Source: Bacteroidia bacterium
GTDB taxonomy: Bacteria; Bacteroidota; Bacteroidia; SpSt-205
Length of the DNA stretch: 64,000 nucleotides
Reading direction: 5' to 3'
Assembly (NCBI GenBank): GCA_025062295.1
Contig: JANXAJ010000003.1
Coordinates: forward strand, 16,099 to 80,098
The notes beneath the pieces were generated by a model. The model searched no databases and was not told the DNA's origin. It saw nothing but the letters and a program-made list of their open reading frames with translations. Below are positions 14,648 through 26,754 of this stretch, in pieces. Numbering within the stretch: position 1 is the stretch's first letter; every line of letters begins with the position of its first letter. A program made the translations under genes and the position numbers.

Positions 14648-15718
14648 CTACTCACCTTCGGCTATTTCCTCAAGGGGCGTAGCTGCTACTTGAAGGACAT
14701 CGCTTTGAAGGAGAAGGGGACGAATCTGCTTCTCTAGCTCTGTCATCAATTCTGGATGATCCTTGAGAAAGATGCGAAGATTTTCTCTCCCTTGGGCTAA
14801 CTTCTGGCCGGCGTAGCTAAACCAGGAGCCTGCTTTCTGAATGATCCCTAATTGAACTCCCAGGTCTATAATTTCACCTACCCGTGAGATACCCTCCCCG
14901 TATAGAATATCAAATTCCGCCATTTTGAAAGGAGGAGCCACTTTATTCTTGACCACCTTCACTCGGACGCGATGTCCTATGACGTCTGTACCTTCTTTGA
15001 TAGCTGCAATCCGACGCACATCCAGACGCACAGAAGAATAGAATTTGAGAGCATTTCCCCCTGTGGTTGTCTCTGTAGGACCGTACATTGCCATAGCCCC
15101 AATCTTTTCCCGAAGCTGGTTGATGAAAATAGCAATGCAGCGCGTCCGAGAGATACTAGCTGTGAGTTTCCTCAGGGCTTGAGACATAAGGCGAGCTTGT
15201 AGGCCCATTTTGGCATCTCCCATTTCCCCCTCCAGCTCAGCTTTAGGCACAAGAGCAGCTACAGAGTCTATAACGACAACATCTATCGCTCCAGAACGAA
15301 TGAGTGAATCAGCAATCTCCAAGGCCTGCTCCCCATAGTCAGGCTGAGAAATAATGAGCGCGTGAGTGTCTATACCCAGCTTTTGAGCATAGACTGGGTC
15401 AAAAGCATGCTCCGCATCAATAAACGCGGCTATCCCTCCCTGTTTATTTGCTTCAGCAATCACATGAAGAGCAATCGTCGTTTTGCCAGAGGCTTCAGGG
15501 CCATATATCTCTGTAATGCGTCCCCGAGGCAACCCCCCCACTCCTAAGGCTGCATCCAAAGCCAATGACCCCGTAGAAATCACCTCTACGCCTTGATCCG
15601 ACCGTTCGTCCAGCTTCATTACAGTGCCTTTACCATATTCTTTCTCCAGCTTCTGAAGGGTCGCCTGAAGAAGTCTCTGACGCTCTTCCGAAGGAGCAGC
15701 CTTCCTCTCTGGTATCAT
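14648..15718 (-). CDS. recA: Recombinase RecA
   Basis: GPEASGKTT Walker [15 protein letters not shown] and the rest of the sequence are RecA across the full length. Confidence 0.95.
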
Positions 15719-19676: not shown

Positions 19677-20255
19677 ATGAAAATCTACACCAAAACAGGG
19701 GATAAGGGAGAGACAGGGCTTTTGGGAGGGGGGCGAGTCTCAAAGGCAGATCCTCGAATAGAAGCCTACGGCACCATAGACGAGCTAAATGCAATGATCG
19801 GACTCCTGGCTCAATACGTACCGGCAGAGGAAAAGGATAGTCTCCGACGCATCCAATCTTCCCTCTTCACGATAGGCTCTCATTTAGCAGCGGGACGCGC
19901 AGAGAAGCCTGTACCTCTTCCTATACTGGAACCCTCAGAGATAGAATGGCTGGAAAACGACATAGATAGACGAACTGGAGAGATTCCGCCCTTGAGACAT
20001 TTTATCCTCCCCGGGAGCTGTGAGCCCGAAGCTTATGCTCAAGTCGCTCGGACAATATGCCGTCGAGCAGAACGACGACTTGTAGCTTTGTATTTGAGCG
20101 AACCGGGAGAGACCATCTTCCTTCAGTATCTCAATCGGCTTAGCGATTGGCTCTTCATTTTTGGGCGTTACTTGAGCTGGCGGCTTGGAGTAGAGGAGAT
20201 CCCATGGAAGCCTGCGAAGGTCAGGCAGGACCCTTCGCAGACTGCTTCTTCATAA
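19677..20255 (+). CDS. ATP:cob(I)alamin adenosyltransferase (PduO-type)
   Basis: MKIYTKTGDKGETGL N-terminus is characteristic of PduO/MMAB-type adenosyltransferases. Confidence 0.8.
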   Translation: MKIYTKTGDKGETGLLGGGRVSKADPRIEAYGTIDELNAMIGLLAQYVPAEEKDSLRRIQSSLFTIGSHLAAGRAEKPVPLPILEPSEIEWLENDIDRRTGEIPPLRHFILPGSCEPEAYAQVARTICRRAERRLVALYLSEPGETIFLQYLNRLSDWLFIFGRYLSWRLGVEEIPWKPAKVRQDPSQTASS

Positions 20256-20285
20256 TAGTCATCATATAATAGATGTCTTGCATTA

Positions 20286-20822
20286 CTATTGCCGCCGATA
20301 TATCCCCCGAAAGCTCACCTCCACCTCAGTGGCAATTTTCTCCCATAGCATCCGAGGAACTTTAATCTTATAATCTGCTGGACGAACAAAAAATCGTCCC
20401 GTCAGAACCAGTTGCTGATCTTTTCGTACCTCATAGAGTCCTGACACAATCTCTTCCCTTTGAACCCCATGGATCTCCATTATTCCTCTTGCACTCACAG
20501 CATAAGTCCCCTCCTGTGTATAAGGAAAAGGAGCTACTAACTTCCCTCGGAAAAAGGCATATGGATACCGGTCAGTCTCTAAATAGCTTTCATTGAAGTG
20601 CTCTTCCATAAGCTTATTTGGGAAAGAAAAGTTGCGCACCTTCACTCGTACATACACAGAATCGGTGGCGAAATCAACCCAACTTGTACAACCTGTCCGA
20701 TTTTCCGCAGCTATCTTCTCCAATGGAGCATCGGAATAGAAGGAAATGATCAGGGTATCTGTAACATAGCGCTGCCCCCATGCATATAAAGTGAAAAACA
20801 AGAGTATGCTAACTTGCCTCAT
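20286..20822 (-). CDS. YceI-like periplasmic polyisoprenoid-binding protein
   Basis: Signal peptide at ATG 20822 (MRQVSILLFFTLYAWGQ). YceI-like length and beta-rich sequence. The track start at 20912 would overlap the upstream gene. Confidence 0.6.
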   Translation of the reverse strand: MRQVSILLFFTLYAWGQRYVTDTLIISFYSDAPLEKIAAENRTGCTSWVDFATDSVYVRVKVRNFSFPNKLMEEHFNESYLETDRYPYAFFRGKLVAPFPYTQEGTYAVSARGIMEIHGVQREEIVSGLYEVRKDQQLVLTGRFFVRPADYKIKVPRMLWEKIATEVEVSFRGIYRRQ

Positions 20823-21642
20823 CCTGCTCAGGCATTTGGAAAGAGAAAATCCTTGAGATATTGAAGCCCAAGCGCAGGAGAGGGCGACGAGTAAAAAGAA
20901 CCTGATTTTCACTCAATCCATCTGCACTAGTGATTCCTATTTGAAAGACATGACCGCCTGTCTCCACTTCTATTCCTGCACTCCATGGGAAGCGGTAATC
21001 GGGAAGGAGACTCGGCTGCCAAAGAGGAAAGGCTCCTTCTCCAAAAATCGTAAAGCGAGCAGCAATCTTGAATCGAGCCCCTCCCATTATCCATCCCCAT
21101 GTATTGGGAAGCTCCGTTGCTAAAGCCACATTTTGATGAAGAAGCATCCCTCCTATCATTAGCGAAAATCGCCTAGAGAATTTCCGAGCCAGCAGAAGCT
21201 GATGAAGGTACTCCCATCTGTCATCCCAGCGCCGATAGCGAAGAGGGTCTTTCCTTTCTGTAAGGAAAGCCATACTAATCACGGTGAGAGAGAAAGGAAT
21301 GCCCTTAGGCTCAGTCTGACGGAGAAGGCGCCCCTTGAAATAGCCATTCCACCACTTTCCCGCTCCAGTCCTTTCTACTCCGAACTCTGCCCACCGAAAA
21401 AATGAGTACCCAAAGCTCAGCCGAACAGTTGCGCCTGCATCTATTCCGAAAAAGTTTTCATATCCTTGAGTCAAGTCACCAAAACGATGGGCAACCCGAA
21501 ACTCAAAGTGATGAGGAGCTAAAGTTTCTGTAGTGTGGAAGTTATAGAGGCGTGTGCCTTTGAATGTAGCGAGGACAGGATATTGCTCTTCTTGCCCCCG
21601 CAAGGTTATAACACCTATGCTCCAGAGAAAGAGGATTCTCAT
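20809..21642 (-). CDS. Secreted hypothetical protein, probably an outer-membrane beta-barrel
   Basis: Signal peptide from ATG 21642 (MRILFLWSIGVITLRGQ). Alternating hydrophobic beta-strand pattern, aromatic-rich, ends in F..-type residues. The track ORF extends to 21744. Confidence 0.4.
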   Translation of the reverse strand: MRILFLWSIGVITLRGQEEQYPVLATFKGTRLYNFHTTETLAPHHFEFRVAHRFGDLTQGYENFFGIDAGATVRLSFGYSFFRWAEFGVERTGAGKWWNGYFKGRLLRQTEPKGIPFSLTVISMAFLTERKDPLRYRRWDDRWEYLHQLLLARKFSRRFSLMIGGMLLHQNVALATELPNTWGWIMGGARFKIAARFTIFGEGAFPLWQPSLLPDYRFPWSAGIEVETGGHVFQIGITSADGLSENQVLFTRRPLLRLGFNISRIFSFQMPEQDEAS

Positions 21643-21983
21643 TGAGGATAGCCTAACTCTATCCACCTTCGCAGGTGGGCGAGGGTACAGTCGTCCAAGC
21701 GCCCAGTCGGCGGCATAGAGCCATTTTCCATGACTTGGTACCATTTTCCCGTTTCTGCTGAGCGGCGCACCTCCTGATAGGAGTCCAGTCGCACCCCTGC
21801 TGAGGGATTAGAGCCTCCATGACAGCTTGTGCAGTGGCGGCGCATCGCCTCAGCTACATATCTCCCATACGTGACCATCATCGTGTCCAAACCAGCACAA
21901 GCAGAGGTAGGAGCCACAGGTTTCTCTCTTTTGCAATCTAACAAAAGCAAGCCCAAAGCCAGCCCTAAAATCTTCCTCCCCAT
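21639..21983 (-). CDS. Small mono-heme c-type cytochrome lipoprotein with a PSCyt1-like (Planctomycete cytochrome C) domain
   Basis: Lipoprotein signal MGRKILGLALGLLLLDC. Single CTSCHGG heme site followed by ...GSMPPTGRL..C.LAHLRRWIELG, resembling the PSCyt1 pattern CxxCHG...MPP...L..WI..GA. Confidence 0.5.
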   Translation of the reverse strand: MGRKILGLALGLLLLDCKREKPVAPTSACAGLDTMMVTYGRYVAEAMRRHCTSCHGGSNPSAGVRLDSYQEVRRSAETGKWYQVMENGSMPPTGRLDDCTLAHLRRWIELGYPQ

Positions 21984-22011
21984 CCTCTGTATAAGAAACA
22001 AAACTCCTTCC

Positions 22012-23505
22012 TCAGCCTTCCTCGTCCTGAAAGAGCTTGAGGAGCTGATTACCTGTAGGCTTGCCCTTGACTGCAGTCCAGTAAGCATCTTTAGCAGCAG
22101 TGAGGCTGACATGCCAATCAACAAGGGGAGGCGGATAACCTAAGGACCTGCGAATCTCTGGCTCAGGCATATAAACCCTTGGTGCAGATAAAGACCGAAG
22201 CTCAGGCACCCAGAGACGGATGAAGCTGCCCTCCGGATCATAGAGCTTTGCCTGTCGGACAGGGTCAAACCAACGGAACCCTCGTCCATCTGTCCCCACA
22301 CCTGCTTGATAGAGCCAGTTGCCCCAGTTGCTATATACATCATAGTCTATGAGCTGCACTTCAAAGTAGCTGGCTCCCCATCGCCAATCTATGAAGAGGT
22401 TTTTAGTGAGGAAGCTGGCTACGATTTGTCGAGCTCTATTGGAGGTCCAGCCAGTCGCTTTGAGTTCTCTCATCGCTGCATCAATAATGGGATAGCCTGT
22501 GTTTCCCTCTATCCATGCCTGAAAAAGCTGCATGTCATGGCGCCAAGGCAGCTTGAGGTTGCGGAGCCCACCTACTGCAAATAGGCGACATCCCCAACGG
22601 GCACTAAGCCAACGAAAATATTCTCGCCATAAAAGTTCAAAGAAGAGCCAATAAGTGGAGTCATTTGCTCCATGCCTTTTCTCTGCTTCTCGCAGACGCT
22701 CACAGATCCATCGAGGCGACAGACAGCCCACCGCCAGCCACGGCGAGAGATGGCTGCTGAAATCGCTGCCCCAAAAGCCATTTCTAGTTTCTTTATAGGT
22801 AAAAAGAGCCCTTTCAAAATAGGCTTCCACTCGAGCCTGCCCTGCTCGCTCTCCCCCTTTGAAGGGAAAACTTTTTTCATGCAGAGGAGGAAGAGCTGAG
22901 AGTCTTTGCCGAAGGATCTTAGCAGTCTCTTCAATTGGCTGACTCGCTGGAGGGAGAGAGGGAGAAGGAAGTGGAGGCTTCACACGAGCTGTCCGCTCCA
23001 CGAGCTGACGAAACCGAGTGAAAAGCATCGGTAGGGAGTCCAAAGGGAAAGGAAGCTGGTGGGTTTCATAAAGGGAATTCCCCTCATGCAGGATAAGAGG
23101 AATCCCTTTTGCTTCCAGAGCGCAAGCAGTAGCACTCTGATAGCTGATCTCCTCAGGGGCCCATTCCCGATGAGCATAGACTATAGAGACTCCCTGCGAG
23201 GCGGCCCATACAGGAAGAACCTCCTGCGGCTCTCCTTCTAAAAGGGTGAGCGGTACCCGTTCAGCTAAATCCAATAATGACTCTAAAATAAAACGCTCCC
23301 GAGCAGGACTCAGCCGACGATTAAACCCTAAAGATTGAGAGGGATAAGAATACTTACCCCATCCAGCGACAGGAGGACCCCACACATAAACAAATTCTAC
23401 CCGAGCTGGTCGGCGCTCCAGTGCAGCCTGCAGAGCAGGATGATCATGCAGACGAAGATCATTCAAAAGCCAAATGGCAACCTTCTCTCCCATAGCTTCA
23501 TTCAT
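22012..23505 (-). CDS. Cryptochrome DASH / DNA photolyase family protein
   Basis: Photolyase N-terminal alpha/beta domain and FAD-binding domain (WREYF, GWTSNRARQIVASFL, DYDVYSNWGNWLYQAG). Confidence 0.85.
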   Translation of the reverse strand: MNEAMGEKVAIWLLNDLRLHDHPALQAALERRPARVEFVYVWGPPVAGWGKYSYPSQSLGFNRRLSPARERFILESLLDLAERVPLTLLEGEPQEVLPVWAASQGVSIVYAHREWAPEEISYQSATACALEAKGIPLILHEGNSLYETHQLPFPLDSLPMLFTRFRQLVERTARVKPPLPSPSLPPASQPIEETAKILRQRLSALPPLHEKSFPFKGGERAGQARVEAYFERALFTYKETRNGFWGSDFSSHLSPWLAVGCLSPRWICERLREAEKRHGANDSTYWLFFELLWREYFRWLSARWGCRLFAVGGLRNLKLPWRHDMQLFQAWIEGNTGYPIIDAAMRELKATGWTSNRARQIVASFLTKNLFIDWRWGASYFEVQLIDYDVYSNWGNWLYQAGVGTDGRGFRWFDPVRQAKLYDPEGSFIRLWVPELRSLSAPRVYMPEPEIRRSLGYPPPLVDWHVSLTAAKDAYWTAVKGKPTGNQLLKLFQDEEG

Positions 23506-24085
23506 CCGTTAACGAATCCTCCTCTAAAAATGTACCGCTCAGCTCCTCCTCCGCATCTCCTCCAGAGGGAAGGAGCTCTTCCTCAGGAAGGATTTCCTCC
23601 TCTGTTATGTCTACAGAGGGTAGAGGGGGCACATTTGGAAAAGGCTCTGAGAGAGGAAGAAGCTCAGCAGGAAGAGGGGGTGAAGAAGAGGGCTTTTTAG
23701 CCAAGAGTGCATTGTGATAGGCACGAACCTGAGCCACACTTGTATGGGGAGGGGCTAAGAGATACACTCTGGCACTGCTCCACAAGCGAGCAGGAGTGCG
23801 AGGATGCTGAACAAGAAAAAGGTAAAACCCCGCTCGTGGAATGCTAATCTCCGTTTGGTGGGGCAACCCCTTCTGGGGAAAAAGGCGGCCTCGGTTGACC
23901 ACGCCCAGAGCGTTTCGAACAATCAGTATAAAAGTATCCTGCCGCCACTGCTCAGGCGCTATGTACCGAATGACAAGCCTTCCCGCAGGTAAAACCGTGT
24001 CTCGCCCCGTAGGTCCGATAAGAAGCCGCTGCCCTAACGCAGAACTAATAGCAAGAAAGAAAACCCATCTCAAGAAGACCTCCAC
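23498..24085 (-). CDS. Hypothetical secreted protein with Pro-rich linker and acidic C-terminal tail
   Basis: Signal peptide VFFLAISSALGQ. C-terminus PSVDITEEEILPEEELLPSGGDAEEELSGTFLEEDSLTDE. Overlaps cryptochrome start by 8 nt. Confidence 0.4.
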   Translation of the reverse strand: MEVFLRWVFFLAISSALGQRLLIGPTGRDTVLPAGRLVIRYIAPEQWRQDTFILIVRNALGVVNRGRLFPQKGLPHQTEISIPRAGFYLFLVQHPRTPARLWSSARVYLLAPPHTSVAQVRAYHNALLAKKPSSSPPLPAELLPLSEPFPNVPPLPSVDITEEEILPEEELLPSGGDAEEELSGTFLEEDSLTDE

Positions 24086-24621
24086 TTAATAGAGCAGCCT
24101 AACGCAGGATATTGAGGTTCAGGCGCTGGCTTCCCGCTCAGAAGGGACTCCAAAGCCTCGCGAAGCTCCTCACGAGTAACACTGGAAGGGTCTTTCCAAT
24201 TGTCATCCAAACGCCCATGATAATACAGCCGATGATTGGAATCATATGCGAAAAATTCTGGCGTGCAAGCTGCTTTGAACGATTTCGCCACCTCTTGGGT
24301 CTCATCAAAAAGAATCGGAAAAGGATAATTCTTTTCATGAATTCGTCTGCATAAAGCTTCGGGAGAGTCCTCATCAGGATAAAGGGTGGGGTCATTTGAA
24401 GCGATCCCTATCCATGCAATCCCCTTTGGAATAAATTCTCGAGCTAAAGCCAGCATACGCTCTTCTACTGCCCTTACATACGGGCAATGACCACAGGTGA
24501 ATACAATCACTACTGGCTTCTGATGAAACATATCACTCTCTATATATTCCCCACAGACGCCCATGAGCTTGAACTTAGGCATAGGTGTGCCTAACGCCAC
24601 ATTCTCCATAAAGGTTGGCAT
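24070..24621 (-). CDS. Thioredoxin-fold thiol-disulfide oxidoreductase (CGHC active site)
   Basis: VVIVFTCGHCPYV thioredoxin-like CxxC motif. About 180 aa. Confidence 0.65.
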   Translation of the reverse strand: MPTFMENVALGTPMPKFKLMGVCGEYIESDMFHQKPVVIVFTCGHCPYVRAVEERMLALAREFIPKGIAWIGIASNDPTLYPDEDSPEALCRRIHEKNYPFPILFDETQEVAKSFKAACTPEFFAYDSNHRLYYHGRLDDNWKDPSSVTREELREALESLLSGKPAPEPQYPALGCSIKWRSS

Positions 24622-24680
24622 GCTTCAAAGATAGCACAAAATAGGGCACTTCATTTCTCGAAATACGTTTATTTGTCTGT

Positions 24681-26483
24681 GTGGACATAGAAGCAGCTAA
24701 GGAGACCCTTCCTGATGCGCCTGGCGTGTATAAGTTTCTCAACACGAGAGGGGAGGTGATTTATGTAGGGAAAGCACGCAATTTGCGTCGTCGGGTCCTG
24801 AGCTACTTTAGCCGAGCCGAAGACCCTAAATGCGACTATAAAACGAGAAATCTTGTACGGCATATCGCTCAAGTGGAGTGGATCCTCACAGATACTGAAT
24901 GGGACGCCCTCCTTTTAGAGAATAATCTCATCAAATACTACAATCCTCGCTTCAATGTCCTTCTCAAGGATGGCAAGACTTATCCCTACCTCTGCATCAC
25001 AGCAGAATCCTATCCTCGTCTGCTTTTTCTTCGGCAAAAAGTGTATCCAGATGCAAAATATTATGGACCCTTTCCTGGGGGAGGAATGCTACGGTCTCTG
25101 ATGGAGCTCTTTCAGACGCTATATCGGCTGCGGGATTGCGACCTCAAGCTCACGCCTGAAGGAGTAGCGGCAGGACGGTTTCGGGCATGTGTCAAGTACT
25201 ATATTGGCAATTGCGCTGCCCCATGTATTGGGAAGCAGAGCCATTCAGCTTATTTAGAGGCAGTGCAGGAGATTCAGCGGCTCTTAGAGGGGGAATGGGA
25301 ACTGGTCTTAGCAGAAATAGATCGGCAGCGTCAGCAAGCAGTAGAGACACTGGAATTTGAGAGGGCTCATGAGCTTAAGAAGCGATTAGAGCAGCTTCGA
25401 GCTTATCAGCAGCGCAGCCTCATTGCCGATGCAGCTCTCGGAGATATAGAAGTCTTGAGCTTCGTTACAGGGGTCAAGATAAGTGTAGTTCATCATCTTC
25501 GTGTGCAAAAAGGGAGAGTGGTGGCAAGCCACACCTGGCAGTTCCCTACACGAGACTGGGAGGAGACTCCCTACGAAGTCTTAGAACGGATTATCGGGGA
25601 AATCGCAGCAGATCACCCCCACCCACCTCATCAGATCCTCTTAGATGGATGGCCTTCTGACAAAGCTCTACCTGAATGGCATAATTTCACTTTCCTTTTT
25701 CCAGAAGAAAGCTCGGCGCTCACAGCCCTGGCTGTCTTCTGTCGGAAAACAGCTCTTTCTATTGTTGAACAGAAAAATGCTTTTCTCACTGAAAAAACCT
25801 CCAAACAAGAGGCTACGCTTCAAGAGTTAGCTGCGCTTCTCAAGCTCCCTAAATTCCCCTTGCGGATAGAGTGCATAGATAATTCTCATATTCAGGGAAG
25901 CCATATGGTCTCTGGGGTAGCGGTATTTATTCGAGGAGAGCCTCGCCGAAGTGAATATCGACGATACATTCATGAGAATCTCTCTGAAGGAAATGACTTT
26001 GAAGCGATTCGGGCAGTTATTCGCCGCAGGTATGAGAAACGGCTCCGAGCAGGCATGCCACTGCCGGACCTCCTCTTGATTGACGGGGGGAAGGGCCAGC
26101 TTGCTGCGGCTTGCGAAGCCATGCAGGAAATTGGTTTGAATGTTCCCGTTTTCGCCTTAGCCAAAAAGAAAGAGGAAATTTTCAGTCCCGATCGCAAATC
26201 TCCTCTATTCATAGATAAGCGCAGTCCCGTCCTGAGACTCTTGCAGCGCATCCGAGATGAGAGCCATGAGACAGCAGTGGGGTTTCACCGGCAGCGACGG
26301 GATGCAGCAGCTTTGCGTACGCTCCTTCTTTCAGTCCCTGGTATTGGCACAAAGTGCGCTGAAAAACTTCTGACCGAATTTGGCTCTCTTGAGCGGCTAC
26401 GCACCGCCTCTTTAGAGGACCTATGTCGTATCTTAGGCAAACGCCGAGGAGAAAGTCTCCATTCTTTTTTGCAGCATGTCTAA
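24681..26483 (+). CDS. uvrC: Excinuclease ABC subunit C
   Basis: GIY-YIG N-terminus (GVYKFLNTRGEVIYVGKARNLRRR), UvrBC-interaction region and C-terminal HhH. Confidence 0.9.
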   Translation: MDIEAAKETLPDAPGVYKFLNTRGEVIYVGKARNLRRRVLSYFSRAEDPKCDYKTRNLVRHIAQVEWILTDTEWDALLLENNLIKYYNPRFNVLLKDGKTYPYLCITAESYPRLLFLRQKVYPDAKYYGPFPGGGMLRSLMELFQTLYRLRDCDLKLTPEGVAAGRFRACVKYYIGNCAAPCIGKQSHSAYLEAVQEIQRLLEGEWELVLAEIDRQRQQAVETLEFERAHELKKRLEQLRAYQQRSLIADAALGDIEVLSFVTGVKISVVHHLRVQKGRVVASHTWQFPTRDWEETPYEVLERIIGEIAADHPHPPHQILLDGWPSDKALPEWHNFTFLFPEESSALTALAVFCRKTALSIVEQKNAFLTEKTSKQEATLQELAALLKLPKFPLRIECIDNSHIQGSHMVSGVAVFIRGEPRRSEYRRYIHENLSEGNDFEAIRAVIRRRYEKRLRAGMPLPDLLLIDGGKGQLAAACEAMQEIGLNVPVFALAKKKEEIFSPDRKSPLFIDKRSPVLRLLQRIRDESHETAVGFHRQRRDAAALRTLLLSVPGIGTKCAEKLLTEFGSLERLRTASLEDLCRILGKRRGESLHSFLQHV

Positions 26484-26754
26484 GTCTATTGGCGAACTGC
26501 TGGAGAGCTTCTTTTCAGGGAAACTCCCTCAGAAGGCGCCTCTGGAGGCTCGGGTATGGGAGGCGTGGCAGCGTATCGTTGGCCCAGACTTGGCAAAGCA
26601 TACAGCAAGCATCCGAATTAGGGGCAAAAAGTGCATCGTCCAAATCCGAGAGCCGCTTCTTCGGATGGAAGTTCAGTACCGCGCTCCCCTTCTATTAGAG
26701 CTTCTTCATGCGGCGGGCTTTCCTGAAATTGAGAGAATACAGGTTTCCTCATAG
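26476..26754 (+). CDS. DUF721-like small protein
   Basis: 92 aa with W..IVG......T....I..G.L.V pattern typical of DUF721. Overlaps uvrC stop by 8 nt. Confidence 0.5.
   Translation: MSKSIGELLESFFSGKLPQKAPLEARVWEAWQRIVGPDLAKHTASIRIRGKKCIVQIREPLLRMEVQYRAPLLLELLHAAGFPEIERIQVSS

Follow-up and report, generated by a model that had tools for sequence, protein, structure and literature searches.

We analysed a stretch of 64,000 nucleotides (nt) from a Bacteroidia bacterium (contig JANXAJ010000003.1), called the window below, and looked at six consecutive co-oriented open reading frames (ORFs) that fill its minus strand from 20286 to 24621 and join a cryptochrome-DASH (Cry-DASH) gene to genes for envelope proteins. 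In our view, this cluster is probably a clade-specific composite operon, found in a small hot-spring clade and made of three blocks that occur separately or otherwise combined elsewhere. Block A encodes a thioredoxin-like (Trx-like) protein and a secreted orphan, U195. Block B is the Cry-DASH gene, and block C is a cassette of genes for a cytochrome c, a DUF5777 barrel and a YceI protein. As a part of this same reading, held with the same confidence, the coupling of Cry-DASH to the cassette would have come about recently and contingently, by operon accretion in a genome that is very compact, and would not make them an obligate functional unit. The comparison of loci indicates that the evolutionarily conserved unit is block C, found throughout Bacteroidota, and that its join to Cry-DASH is neither necessary nor general.

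Six tightly packed genes on the minus strand

The limits of the cluster are those given in an earlier reading of the same DNA (the first-pass annotation), whose description of six co-oriented genes with overlaps or gaps of 30 nt or less is borne out. In gene order, they are:

24070..24621, minus strand: Trx-like protein, 183 amino acids (aa), motif FTCGHCPY; block A, gene 1
23498..24085, minus strand: U195, secreted orphan, 195 aa; block A, gene 2
22012..23505, minus strand: Cry-DASH, 497 aa, TIGR02765; block B
21639..21983, minus strand: cytochrome c, 114 aa from M48 (maximal ORF 22124-21639); block C, gene 1
20809..21642, minus strand: DUF5777 barrel, 277 aa (maximal ORF 21744-20809, 311 aa); block C, gene 2
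20286..20822, minus strand: YceI, 178 aa from M31 (maximal ORF 20912-20286); block C, gene 3

The five junctions measure, in this order, -16, -8, +28, -4 (ATGA) and -14 nt, so that four of them overlap. For the last three genes these values use signal-peptide-like starts, their maximal ORFs being judged too long; the 277-aa DUF5777 protein starting at 21642 is identical to a deposited NCBI protein (P0001). On one side, the block is flanked by the divergent uvrC gene (24681-26483) across a gap of 59 nt and, on the other, by a convergent cobalamin adenosyltransferase gene (19677-20255). The cluster therefore comprises exactly six genes. The earlier family calls also hold by profile search, namely a thioredoxin-fold protein with a CGHC motif, a secreted protein with an acidic tail, a Cry-DASH, a PSCyt1-like cytochrome, a barrel and a YceI protein. 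Of the two proteins for which a profile assignment had been wanted, the 311-aa barrel received one (DUF5777) and the 195-aa secreted protein matched no family.

Tight spacing is not special in this genome, where packing is genome-wide: of the 35 pairs of co-oriented ORF neighbours in the window, 30 have gaps of 30 nt or less, and about 98% of the window lies in maximal ORFs. If the composite-operon reading is right, overlapping co-oriented genes in very compact genomes are, alone, no sign of a functional module. Horizontal transfer of the cluster was considered and set aside, as composition gave no sign of it (GC 0.45-0.53, even across the block).

Conservation of block C in Bacteroidota

When a DUF5777 alignment was used as the query, one-per-species genomes yielded at least 594 relatives and metagenomes at least 575; of each kind, 80 loci (160 in all) were kept. 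Those with a title were nearly all from Bacteroidota. Cultured carriers of the cassette include Flectobacillus roseus LMG 24501, Runella defluvii DSM 17976, Emticicia spp., Cytophaga aurantiaca DSM 3654 and Mucilaginibacter sp. BT774. ORFs were called in these loci and searched with the window proteins, and all neighbours were clustered for the 80 genome loci; the metagenome neighbour counts are lower bounds, many contigs being short. The following neighbours of DUF5777 were counted:

PSCyt1-like cytochrome c, same strand as DUF5777: 67/80 genome loci, 56/80 metagenome loci
YceI, same strand as DUF5777: 58/80 genome loci, 55/80 metagenome loci
Oligonucleotide/oligosaccharide-binding (OB)-fold, tRNA_anti-like membrane protein: 29/80 genome loci
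Reg_prop/Y_Y_Y histidine kinase: 12/80 genome loci
Extracytoplasmic function (ECF) sigma factor: 11/80 genome loci
Rieske protein: 9/80 genome loci
LytTR-type regulator: 8/80 genome loci

Where present, the cytochrome c and YceI genes were always on the barrel's strand. Often, there are two cytochrome c genes, the first for about 125 aa and the second for 220-340 aa with extra heme motifs (two- to three-heme). ECF sigma factors beside the cassette are often followed by anti-sigma-like genes. In several Chitinophagaceae and Cytophagales genomes, the cassette comes directly after the genes for an ECF sigma factor and for a membrane protein of anti-sigma type, and is then extended by the OB-fold and Rieske proteins; such extended cassettes were seen at L064:4528-9293, L071:4953-9727, L060:7202-12209, L075:6923-12420 and L085:6100-10804 (locus:positions). 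Their gene order points to an inducible regulon of the extracytoplasmic-stress type. No ChrR-like regulator was found among the neighbours of the ECF-sigma cassettes; RskA_C-type or barrel-domain anti-sigma-like proteins, one CHRD protein, one PepSY-like protein and an endonuclease III were found instead. In four lineages, the cassette is followed by a protein of about 280 aa with a CxxCH-like motif and a C-terminal sorting domain of type IX secretion (L022:11389-12228, with CTDCH; L028; L046; L061). It is perhaps a heme protein that is secreted and connected with the cassette.

The cassette is new in that it is undescribed in Bacteroidota, with more than 1,100 DUF5777 relatives detected, often next to ECF sigma factor or two-component genes. 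Literature searches on YceI in Bacteroidota, and on YceI with Flavobacterium and cytochrome c, returned nothing relevant.

Photolyase genes near the cassette

Of the 160 loci, six have a photolyase-family gene no more than 10 kb from the cassette. They belong to three lineages, of a total that varies with the identity threshold from 61 to 107, and the other 154 loci have no such gene within reach. Cry-DASH is directly upstream of the cassette in L013, and in L079 it is found 5 kb away, beyond two large unrelated ORFs. In L017, L021, L026 and L101, the gene near the cassette resembles class-I photolyases for cyclobutane pyrimidine dimers (CPD). Its presence varies even within one freshwater lineage: a two-component system separates it from the cassette in L017, and L022 and L107 are without it.

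The raw photolyase enrichment (6 in 1.78 Mb) was dismissed because it comes from only three lineages, one of them being the lineage that prompted the question. Without the window's own lineage, two events in 1.76 Mb of flank are left. This is about one per Mb, which we estimate to be the chance level for a genome with a few photolyase genes. Unrelated housekeeping families are found near the cassette at a similar rate, such as DEAD-box helicase (5 loci) and pstB (8 loci). As judged from these loci, Cry-DASH and the cassette are not a conserved functional neighbourhood. Conservation of this neighbourhood in related genomes, which the first-pass annotation had named as a check on its proposal, does not extend past a small subclade, the adjacency being found in the window, L093 and L013 only. 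A literature search on YceI, photolyase and light found nothing relevant.

Block combinations in related genomes

The three blocks stand together in the window and in L093, a Logan contig that reads Trx-U193-Cry-DASH-cytochrome c-DUF5777 and then ends. L013 has B and C without A (Cry-DASH-cytochrome c-DUF5777-YceI). In the genome with the closest DUF5777 (GCA_026414975.1, 72% identity), A and B are on one contig and C on another: L007 runs Trx-U194-Cry-DASH and goes on with a glycosyltransferase gene, without C, and in L001 the block C trio lies 27 nt behind sufD. In other sister genomes, C follows dapA (L002, 4-nt overlap) or a resistance-nodulation-division (RND) efflux operon (L004). Block A was found alone (Trx-U193) in L094 and L095, and a U195-family protein, U204, alone in L096 and L097. 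One related assembly bears the label 'KatS3mg', which we take to denote a series of metagenome-assembled genomes from hot springs.

Cry-DASH also has other partners in sister genomes. In L008, its stop overlaps a phytoene synthase/desaturase operon by 4 nt; in L010, it is beside a divergent glyceraldehyde-3-phosphate dehydrogenase gene; and in L011, it is beside a divergent superoxide dismutase (SOD) gene, with a carotenoid operon downstream. The carotenoid operon of L008:7001-13018 and L011:7001-14584 contains a phytoene synthase fused to Caroten_synth and two phytoene-desaturase-like genes. This pairing looks more obviously light-related than that of the window, in which none of the carotenoid, PolX or SOD genes neighbouring Cry-DASH in relatives was found.

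In rough neighbour-joining trees, the window, L093, L013 and the genome of L001 and L007 fall in one subclade, and the outgroups are without the B-C adjacency. A single origin and a single loss of the B-C junction are therefore probable. The adjacency is retained in three of the four genomes of this one subclade only.

The first-pass annotation had seen in the six genes a dedicated light-responsive envelope module, in which Cry-DASH and the peroxiredoxin-like Trx protein would act with the cytochrome c, the barrel and YceI against photo-oxidative damage, or in quinone or carotenoid handling. We consider this unlikely. The operon-like structure stands, with six co-oriented genes, overlapping junctions and one candidate promoter (see below), and the theme of oxidative stress and quinones is plausible because a YceI lipocalin and a cytochrome counter lipid peroxyl radicals in Proteobacteria, guarding against lipid peroxidation (PMC9113575). 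The position of sister Cry-DASH orthologues by carotenoid or SOD genes suggests, moreover, that Cry-DASH tends to travel with photoprotection genes. What does not hold is a conserved coupling of Cry-DASH to envelope genes. Besides the 154 loci without a photolyase-family gene and the like frequency of unrelated housekeeping families, the linkage is broken in GCA_026414975.1, outgroup genomes within the lineage lack it, and no ChrR-type anti-sigma factor or other known light regulator was found beside the cassette.

Some observations, in turn, weigh against a merely contingent accretion. The B-C junction (4-28 nt) is kept in three genomes whose flanks are all different, the upstream neighbours being uvrC, dnaN with a hexapeptide-repeat gene, or a NUDIX gene. 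A junction kept despite differing flanks is as expected for one transcription unit and is the best point for the light module; the differing flanks could reflect selection for linkage rather than neutral persistence. A CPD-photolyase-like gene is also found directly upstream of an extended cassette in the unrelated freshwater lineage (L021, L026), an independent adjacency that again speaks for a link to light. Promoters may also lie inside the coding sequence, which would speak against a single transcript.

DNA-repair genes recur loosely around the blocks, which may be chance. In the window, recA (14648-15718) is found 4.6 kb past the YceI end of the cluster, and uvrC shares 8 nt with a small DciA gene (26476-26754). 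In L007, the Trx-like gene comes after a PolX-like HHH/PHP gene; in L016, the cassette cytochromes come directly after an endonuclease III gene.

Candidate promoter and transcript end

Two elements that could bound a transcript were located at the borders of the cluster:

24626..24633, minus strand: candidate Bacteroidetes-type -7 element TATCTTTG (consensus TAnnTTTG), 5 nt before the ATG start codon of the Trx-like gene, within the uvrC gap
20207..20248, minus strand: stem-loop, possible transcript end, about 40 nt beyond the stop codon of YceI and within the 3' part of the cobalamin adenosyltransferase gene

The TAnnTTTG -7 consensus is that of Bacteroides and Flavobacterium promoters. The candidate is a consensus match only, and is the only full TAnnTTTG on the minus strand in 20200-24760; window-wide, the motif has a density of 0.32 per kb per strand. 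A sigma-70 promoter scan, with a consensus unsuited to Bacteroidota, gave 5 sites where shuffled sequence predicts 5.3. The stem-loop is a weak candidate: it has a stem of about 14 bp in a fold of -27.5 kcal/mol, no U tract, and a z-score of only -1.4 for the 101-nt fragment. The intrinsic-terminator scan, whose counts were likewise those of shuffled sequence, found no terminator-like hairpin in the short junctions between the six genes. Most likely, all six genes are read as one transcript from a Bacteroidetes-type promoter in the 59-nt gap, and translation is probably coupled at the overlapping junctions. A single promoter upstream of the Trx-like gene would mean that the envelope cassette is co-expressed with Cry-DASH in this genome.

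That the genes might be independently transcribed had been named by the first-pass annotation as the result that would undo its proposal. Seen in the sequence, the junctions contain neither a full TAnnTTTG nor a hairpin, which agrees with joint transcription; two shortened motifs (TAnTTTG) are found within the Cry-DASH gene, at 22821 and 22368. They would fit a pure juxtaposition, in which promoters buried in upstream coding sequence would serve the cassette, and perhaps also Cry-DASH, and the cluster would be two or three independent transcription units. An embedded promoter would also make it easier to understand how the cassette can sit equally tightly behind sufD or dapA and in varied upstream contexts. 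Read-through from any upstream operon accounts for these contexts equally well, however, and the gaps of at most 28 nt, with four of five junctions overlapping and one ATGA, leave no space for a promoter between genes and speak for one unit. We therefore hold juxtaposition to be quite improbable and keep the composite operon as the preferred reading.

Proteins of block C

The likely start of the cytochrome c is M48, at 21983, giving the N-terminus MGRKILGLALGLLLLDC. The protein has one CTSCH and a later MPP motif. Its match to PSCyt1 is marginal (24.6 bits, cut-off 22) and that to Cytochrome_CBB3 is below the cut-off (24.1 bits, cut-off 27); homologues in 123 other loci carry the same cytochrome c domain. 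A loose lipobox pattern fits 121 of 156 homologues, and the window protein has LLLDC, an atypical lipobox. It is probably a small mono-heme lipoprotein. Among the cassette cytochromes, 16 ORFs have CxxxxCH only and 10 have CxxxCH only; these variants replace CxxCH or are added to it, for example at L021:9098-9481, L017:9078-9464 and L026:9091-9468. This suggests unusual heme-attachment sites in the family.

The barrel protein matches PF19089 (DUF5777) with 200 bits over model positions 1-247 of 247, and its signal peptide ends at LRG, before QEE. Its AlphaFold2 model is a 12-strand barrel (mean per-residue confidence, pLDDT, 81; predicted template-modelling score, pTM, 0.79), from which we predict an outer-membrane beta-barrel. 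The nearest solved folds found by Foldseek were the 12-strand porins NanC, VhGalP and KdgM, followed by FapF and a COG4313 channel, and all top matches were outer-membrane barrels. With template-modelling (TM) scores of 0.5-0.7 and about 10% identity, these matches tell of barrel size rather than function. In the family, 41 positions are invariant, with Arg, Lys and His frequent among them; it also has a conserved N-terminal segment of 20 residues (ATFKGTRLxNxHT) before the first strand, and the invariant motifs DFRxAHRFG and ETGGHVFQ. The invariant basic residues presumably resemble the basic tracks of the acidic-sugar porins KdgM and NanC. A literature search on DUF5777 found nothing.

These features bear on another view of the cassette, in which it would be a small porin-cytochrome unit for the passage of electrons, or of a solute that is anionic or hydrophobic, through the outer membrane, as a split Cyc2-like system or a channel of the KdgM/NanC type, with YceI as a periplasmic carrier and no radical quenching. 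The comparison with Cyc2, which we take to be a fused cytochrome-porin, would fit the ATGA coupling of the cytochrome and barrel genes, and the invariant Arg, Lys and His as well as the likeness to specific channels would fit a solute pore. Extended cassettes also bring extra multi-heme cytochromes and a Rieske protein, and pstB is near the cassette in eight loci, though on the opposite strand. We judge this view very unlikely. No cytochrome-barrel fusion was found among the best 120 DUF5777 relatives, the channel matches go no further than barrel size, and the carriers, judged by record titles, are ordinary aerobic heterotrophs, not known metal oxidisers.

YceI matches PF04264 with 34.7 bits (cut-off 23.7) over residues 80-202. 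Its signal peptide, as read from the sequence, is MRQVSILLFFTLYAWG, ending in AWG and followed by QRY, and the protein is a predicted periplasmic lipocalin. Three of the exported proteins have Gln at +1 after the predicted signal-peptidase-I site: U195 (after ALG), DUF5777 (after LRG) and YceI (after AWG). By a loose pattern, the same holds for 106 of 125 YceI and 134 of 157 DUF5777 homologues of the surveyed loci. Gln at this position fits the Bacteroidetes pyroglutamate 'Q-rule' for exported proteins. With a lipobox-like Cys in one protein and signal-peptidase-I sites in the others, an envelope location of block C fits.

Cry-DASH and block A

Cry-DASH matches TIGR02765 (crypto_DASH) with 436.4 bits (cut-off 317.05), its residues 9-436 covering model positions 3-431 of 431, and contains the domains PF00875 DNA_photolyase (2.6e-27) and PF03441 FAD_binding_7 (2.7e-59). 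The nearest solved proteins are 6kii (4e-116), 1np7 from Synechocystis (1e-111) and 2j4d, Arabidopsis Cry3 (4e-98), ahead of the E. coli photolyase 1dnp (5e-52). By this full-length match, and by a similarity to solved Cry-DASH proteins that exceeds its similarity to class I photolyases and to animal or plant cryptochromes, the window protein is assigned to the DASH family, as a predicted single-strand-DNA photolyase/cryptochrome. Outside their own clade, the Cry-DASH proteins of the clade (about 490-497 aa) come closest to cyanobacterial and planctomycete Cry-DASH (42-47% identity), and that of the window is only 39% identical to the 429-aa Mucilaginibacter Cry-DASH of L079. This hints at an acquisition from mat-dwelling cyanobacteria. 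A literature search on Cry-DASH gene neighbourhoods found nothing relevant.

The Trx-like protein matches PF00578 AhpC-TSA (57.2 bits, 2e-15) and PF08534 Redoxin (46.5 bits, 4e-12), with CGHC at residues 43-46; among solved structures, it is nearest to 2ywi, 2cvb and 3u5r, which are thioredoxin-like proteins without a characterised function. It has no N-terminal hydrophobic segment or signal peptide and is therefore read as cytoplasmic. U195 has no Pfam or NCBIfam match. Its homologues number 8 among 5.8 billion clusters and 10 among 1.84 billion representatives, and the named ones all come from this Bacteroidia lineage. The protein consists of a signal peptide ending in ALG before Q, a beta-sandwich of about 105 aa, a helix with RAYHNALL, and a Pro-rich and then acidic disordered tail; the RAYHNALL helix is invariant and the acidic tail variable. 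In its AlphaFold2 model, residues 31-130 have a pLDDT of 87-94, and Foldseek gave generic immunoglobulin-like matches only. No function could be assigned to U195, the family being an orphan and its sandwich fold generic. The two genes of block A keep their 16-nt overlap in four genomes (window 23498-24621, L007:5851-6971, L093:4237-5390, and L094/L095 at L094:5465-6582). This conserved pairing of a cytoplasmic CGHC protein with an exported orphan is odd.

A possible mechanism and comparison with known systems

Reasoning by analogy, block C might be the Bacteroidota counterpart of the proteobacterial pair of YceI and cytochrome b561 (BcnA-LcoA; YceI-YceJ in E. coli), a possibility that we hold only tentatively. 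In Burkholderia cenocepacia, bcnA, lcoA and psrA mutants accumulate lipid peroxidation products, and it was proposed that the lipocalin's quinone is returned to its reduced state by the cytochrome; polyisoprenoid or quinone ligands of YceI are known from crystal structures of other members (PMC9113575). By this analogy, YceI would be the periplasmic carrier of an isoprenoid quinone, the cytochrome c lipoprotein would keep this quinone reduced or hand its electron on, and the DUF5777 barrel would be a station or channel at the outer membrane. The three proteins would jointly quench lipid-derived radicals in the envelope. The cassette is thus a candidate for quinone and lipid-radical handling in the periplasm and outer membrane of Bacteroidota, a question that has been taken up for YceI proteins of late, and in Proteobacteria only.

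Three findings sit badly with this mechanism. A search for cytochrome b561 with E. coli YceJ as the query found none, either in the window or among the ORFs of the 160 loci. Pairwise BLAST gave no match between the YceI proteins of the window and of E. coli, and phmmer recovered no solved structure, so that the window protein is a distant member of PF04264. The many invariant Arg, Lys and His of the barrel are left unexplained.

If the mechanism is true, an operon of the cassette with Cry-DASH and the peroxiredoxin-like gene would be sensible in a strongly illuminated habitat. The link could then be adaptive, a phylum-wide lipid-radical defence having been recruited in the hot-spring clade under the Cry-DASH/peroxiredoxin-like promoter as a photo-oxidative arm of the envelope. 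We give this a low probability. Photolyase is grouped with envelope and lipid protection under one regulator in the photo-oxidative regulons of sigmaE-ChrR in Rhodobacter and of the LitR/CarH type. Unlike in these, no ChrR-, LitR- or CarH-like regulator was found next to the window cluster, and the grouping is not conserved.

Like Synechocystis Sll1629 (1NP7) and Arabidopsis Cry3 (2J4D), the window Cry-DASH matches TIGR02765 and has both photolyase domains; unlike them, it sits in an operon-like block and does not stand alone. DUF5777 shares a 12-strand barrel of similar size with the KdgM/NanC porins and the COG4313 channels for hydrophobic molecules, its best Foldseek matches. It differs from them in its low identity and in having its own N-terminal segment and motifs, and sugar transport is unsupported.

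The closest comparison for the cassette is with BcnA-LcoA(-PsrA) and with yceJ-yceI, which are adjacent in E. coli. Shared with them is a gene for a YceI lipocalin beside a same-strand gene for a heme protein, a linkage that is phylum-wide here (PMC9113575 for the proteobacterial systems). The cassette differs in that it is found in Bacteroidota, which PMC9113575 does not mention, and in that its heme partner is a small c-type cytochrome lipoprotein and not a membrane cytochrome b561. It also has an added constant member, the predicted DUF5777 outer-membrane barrel.

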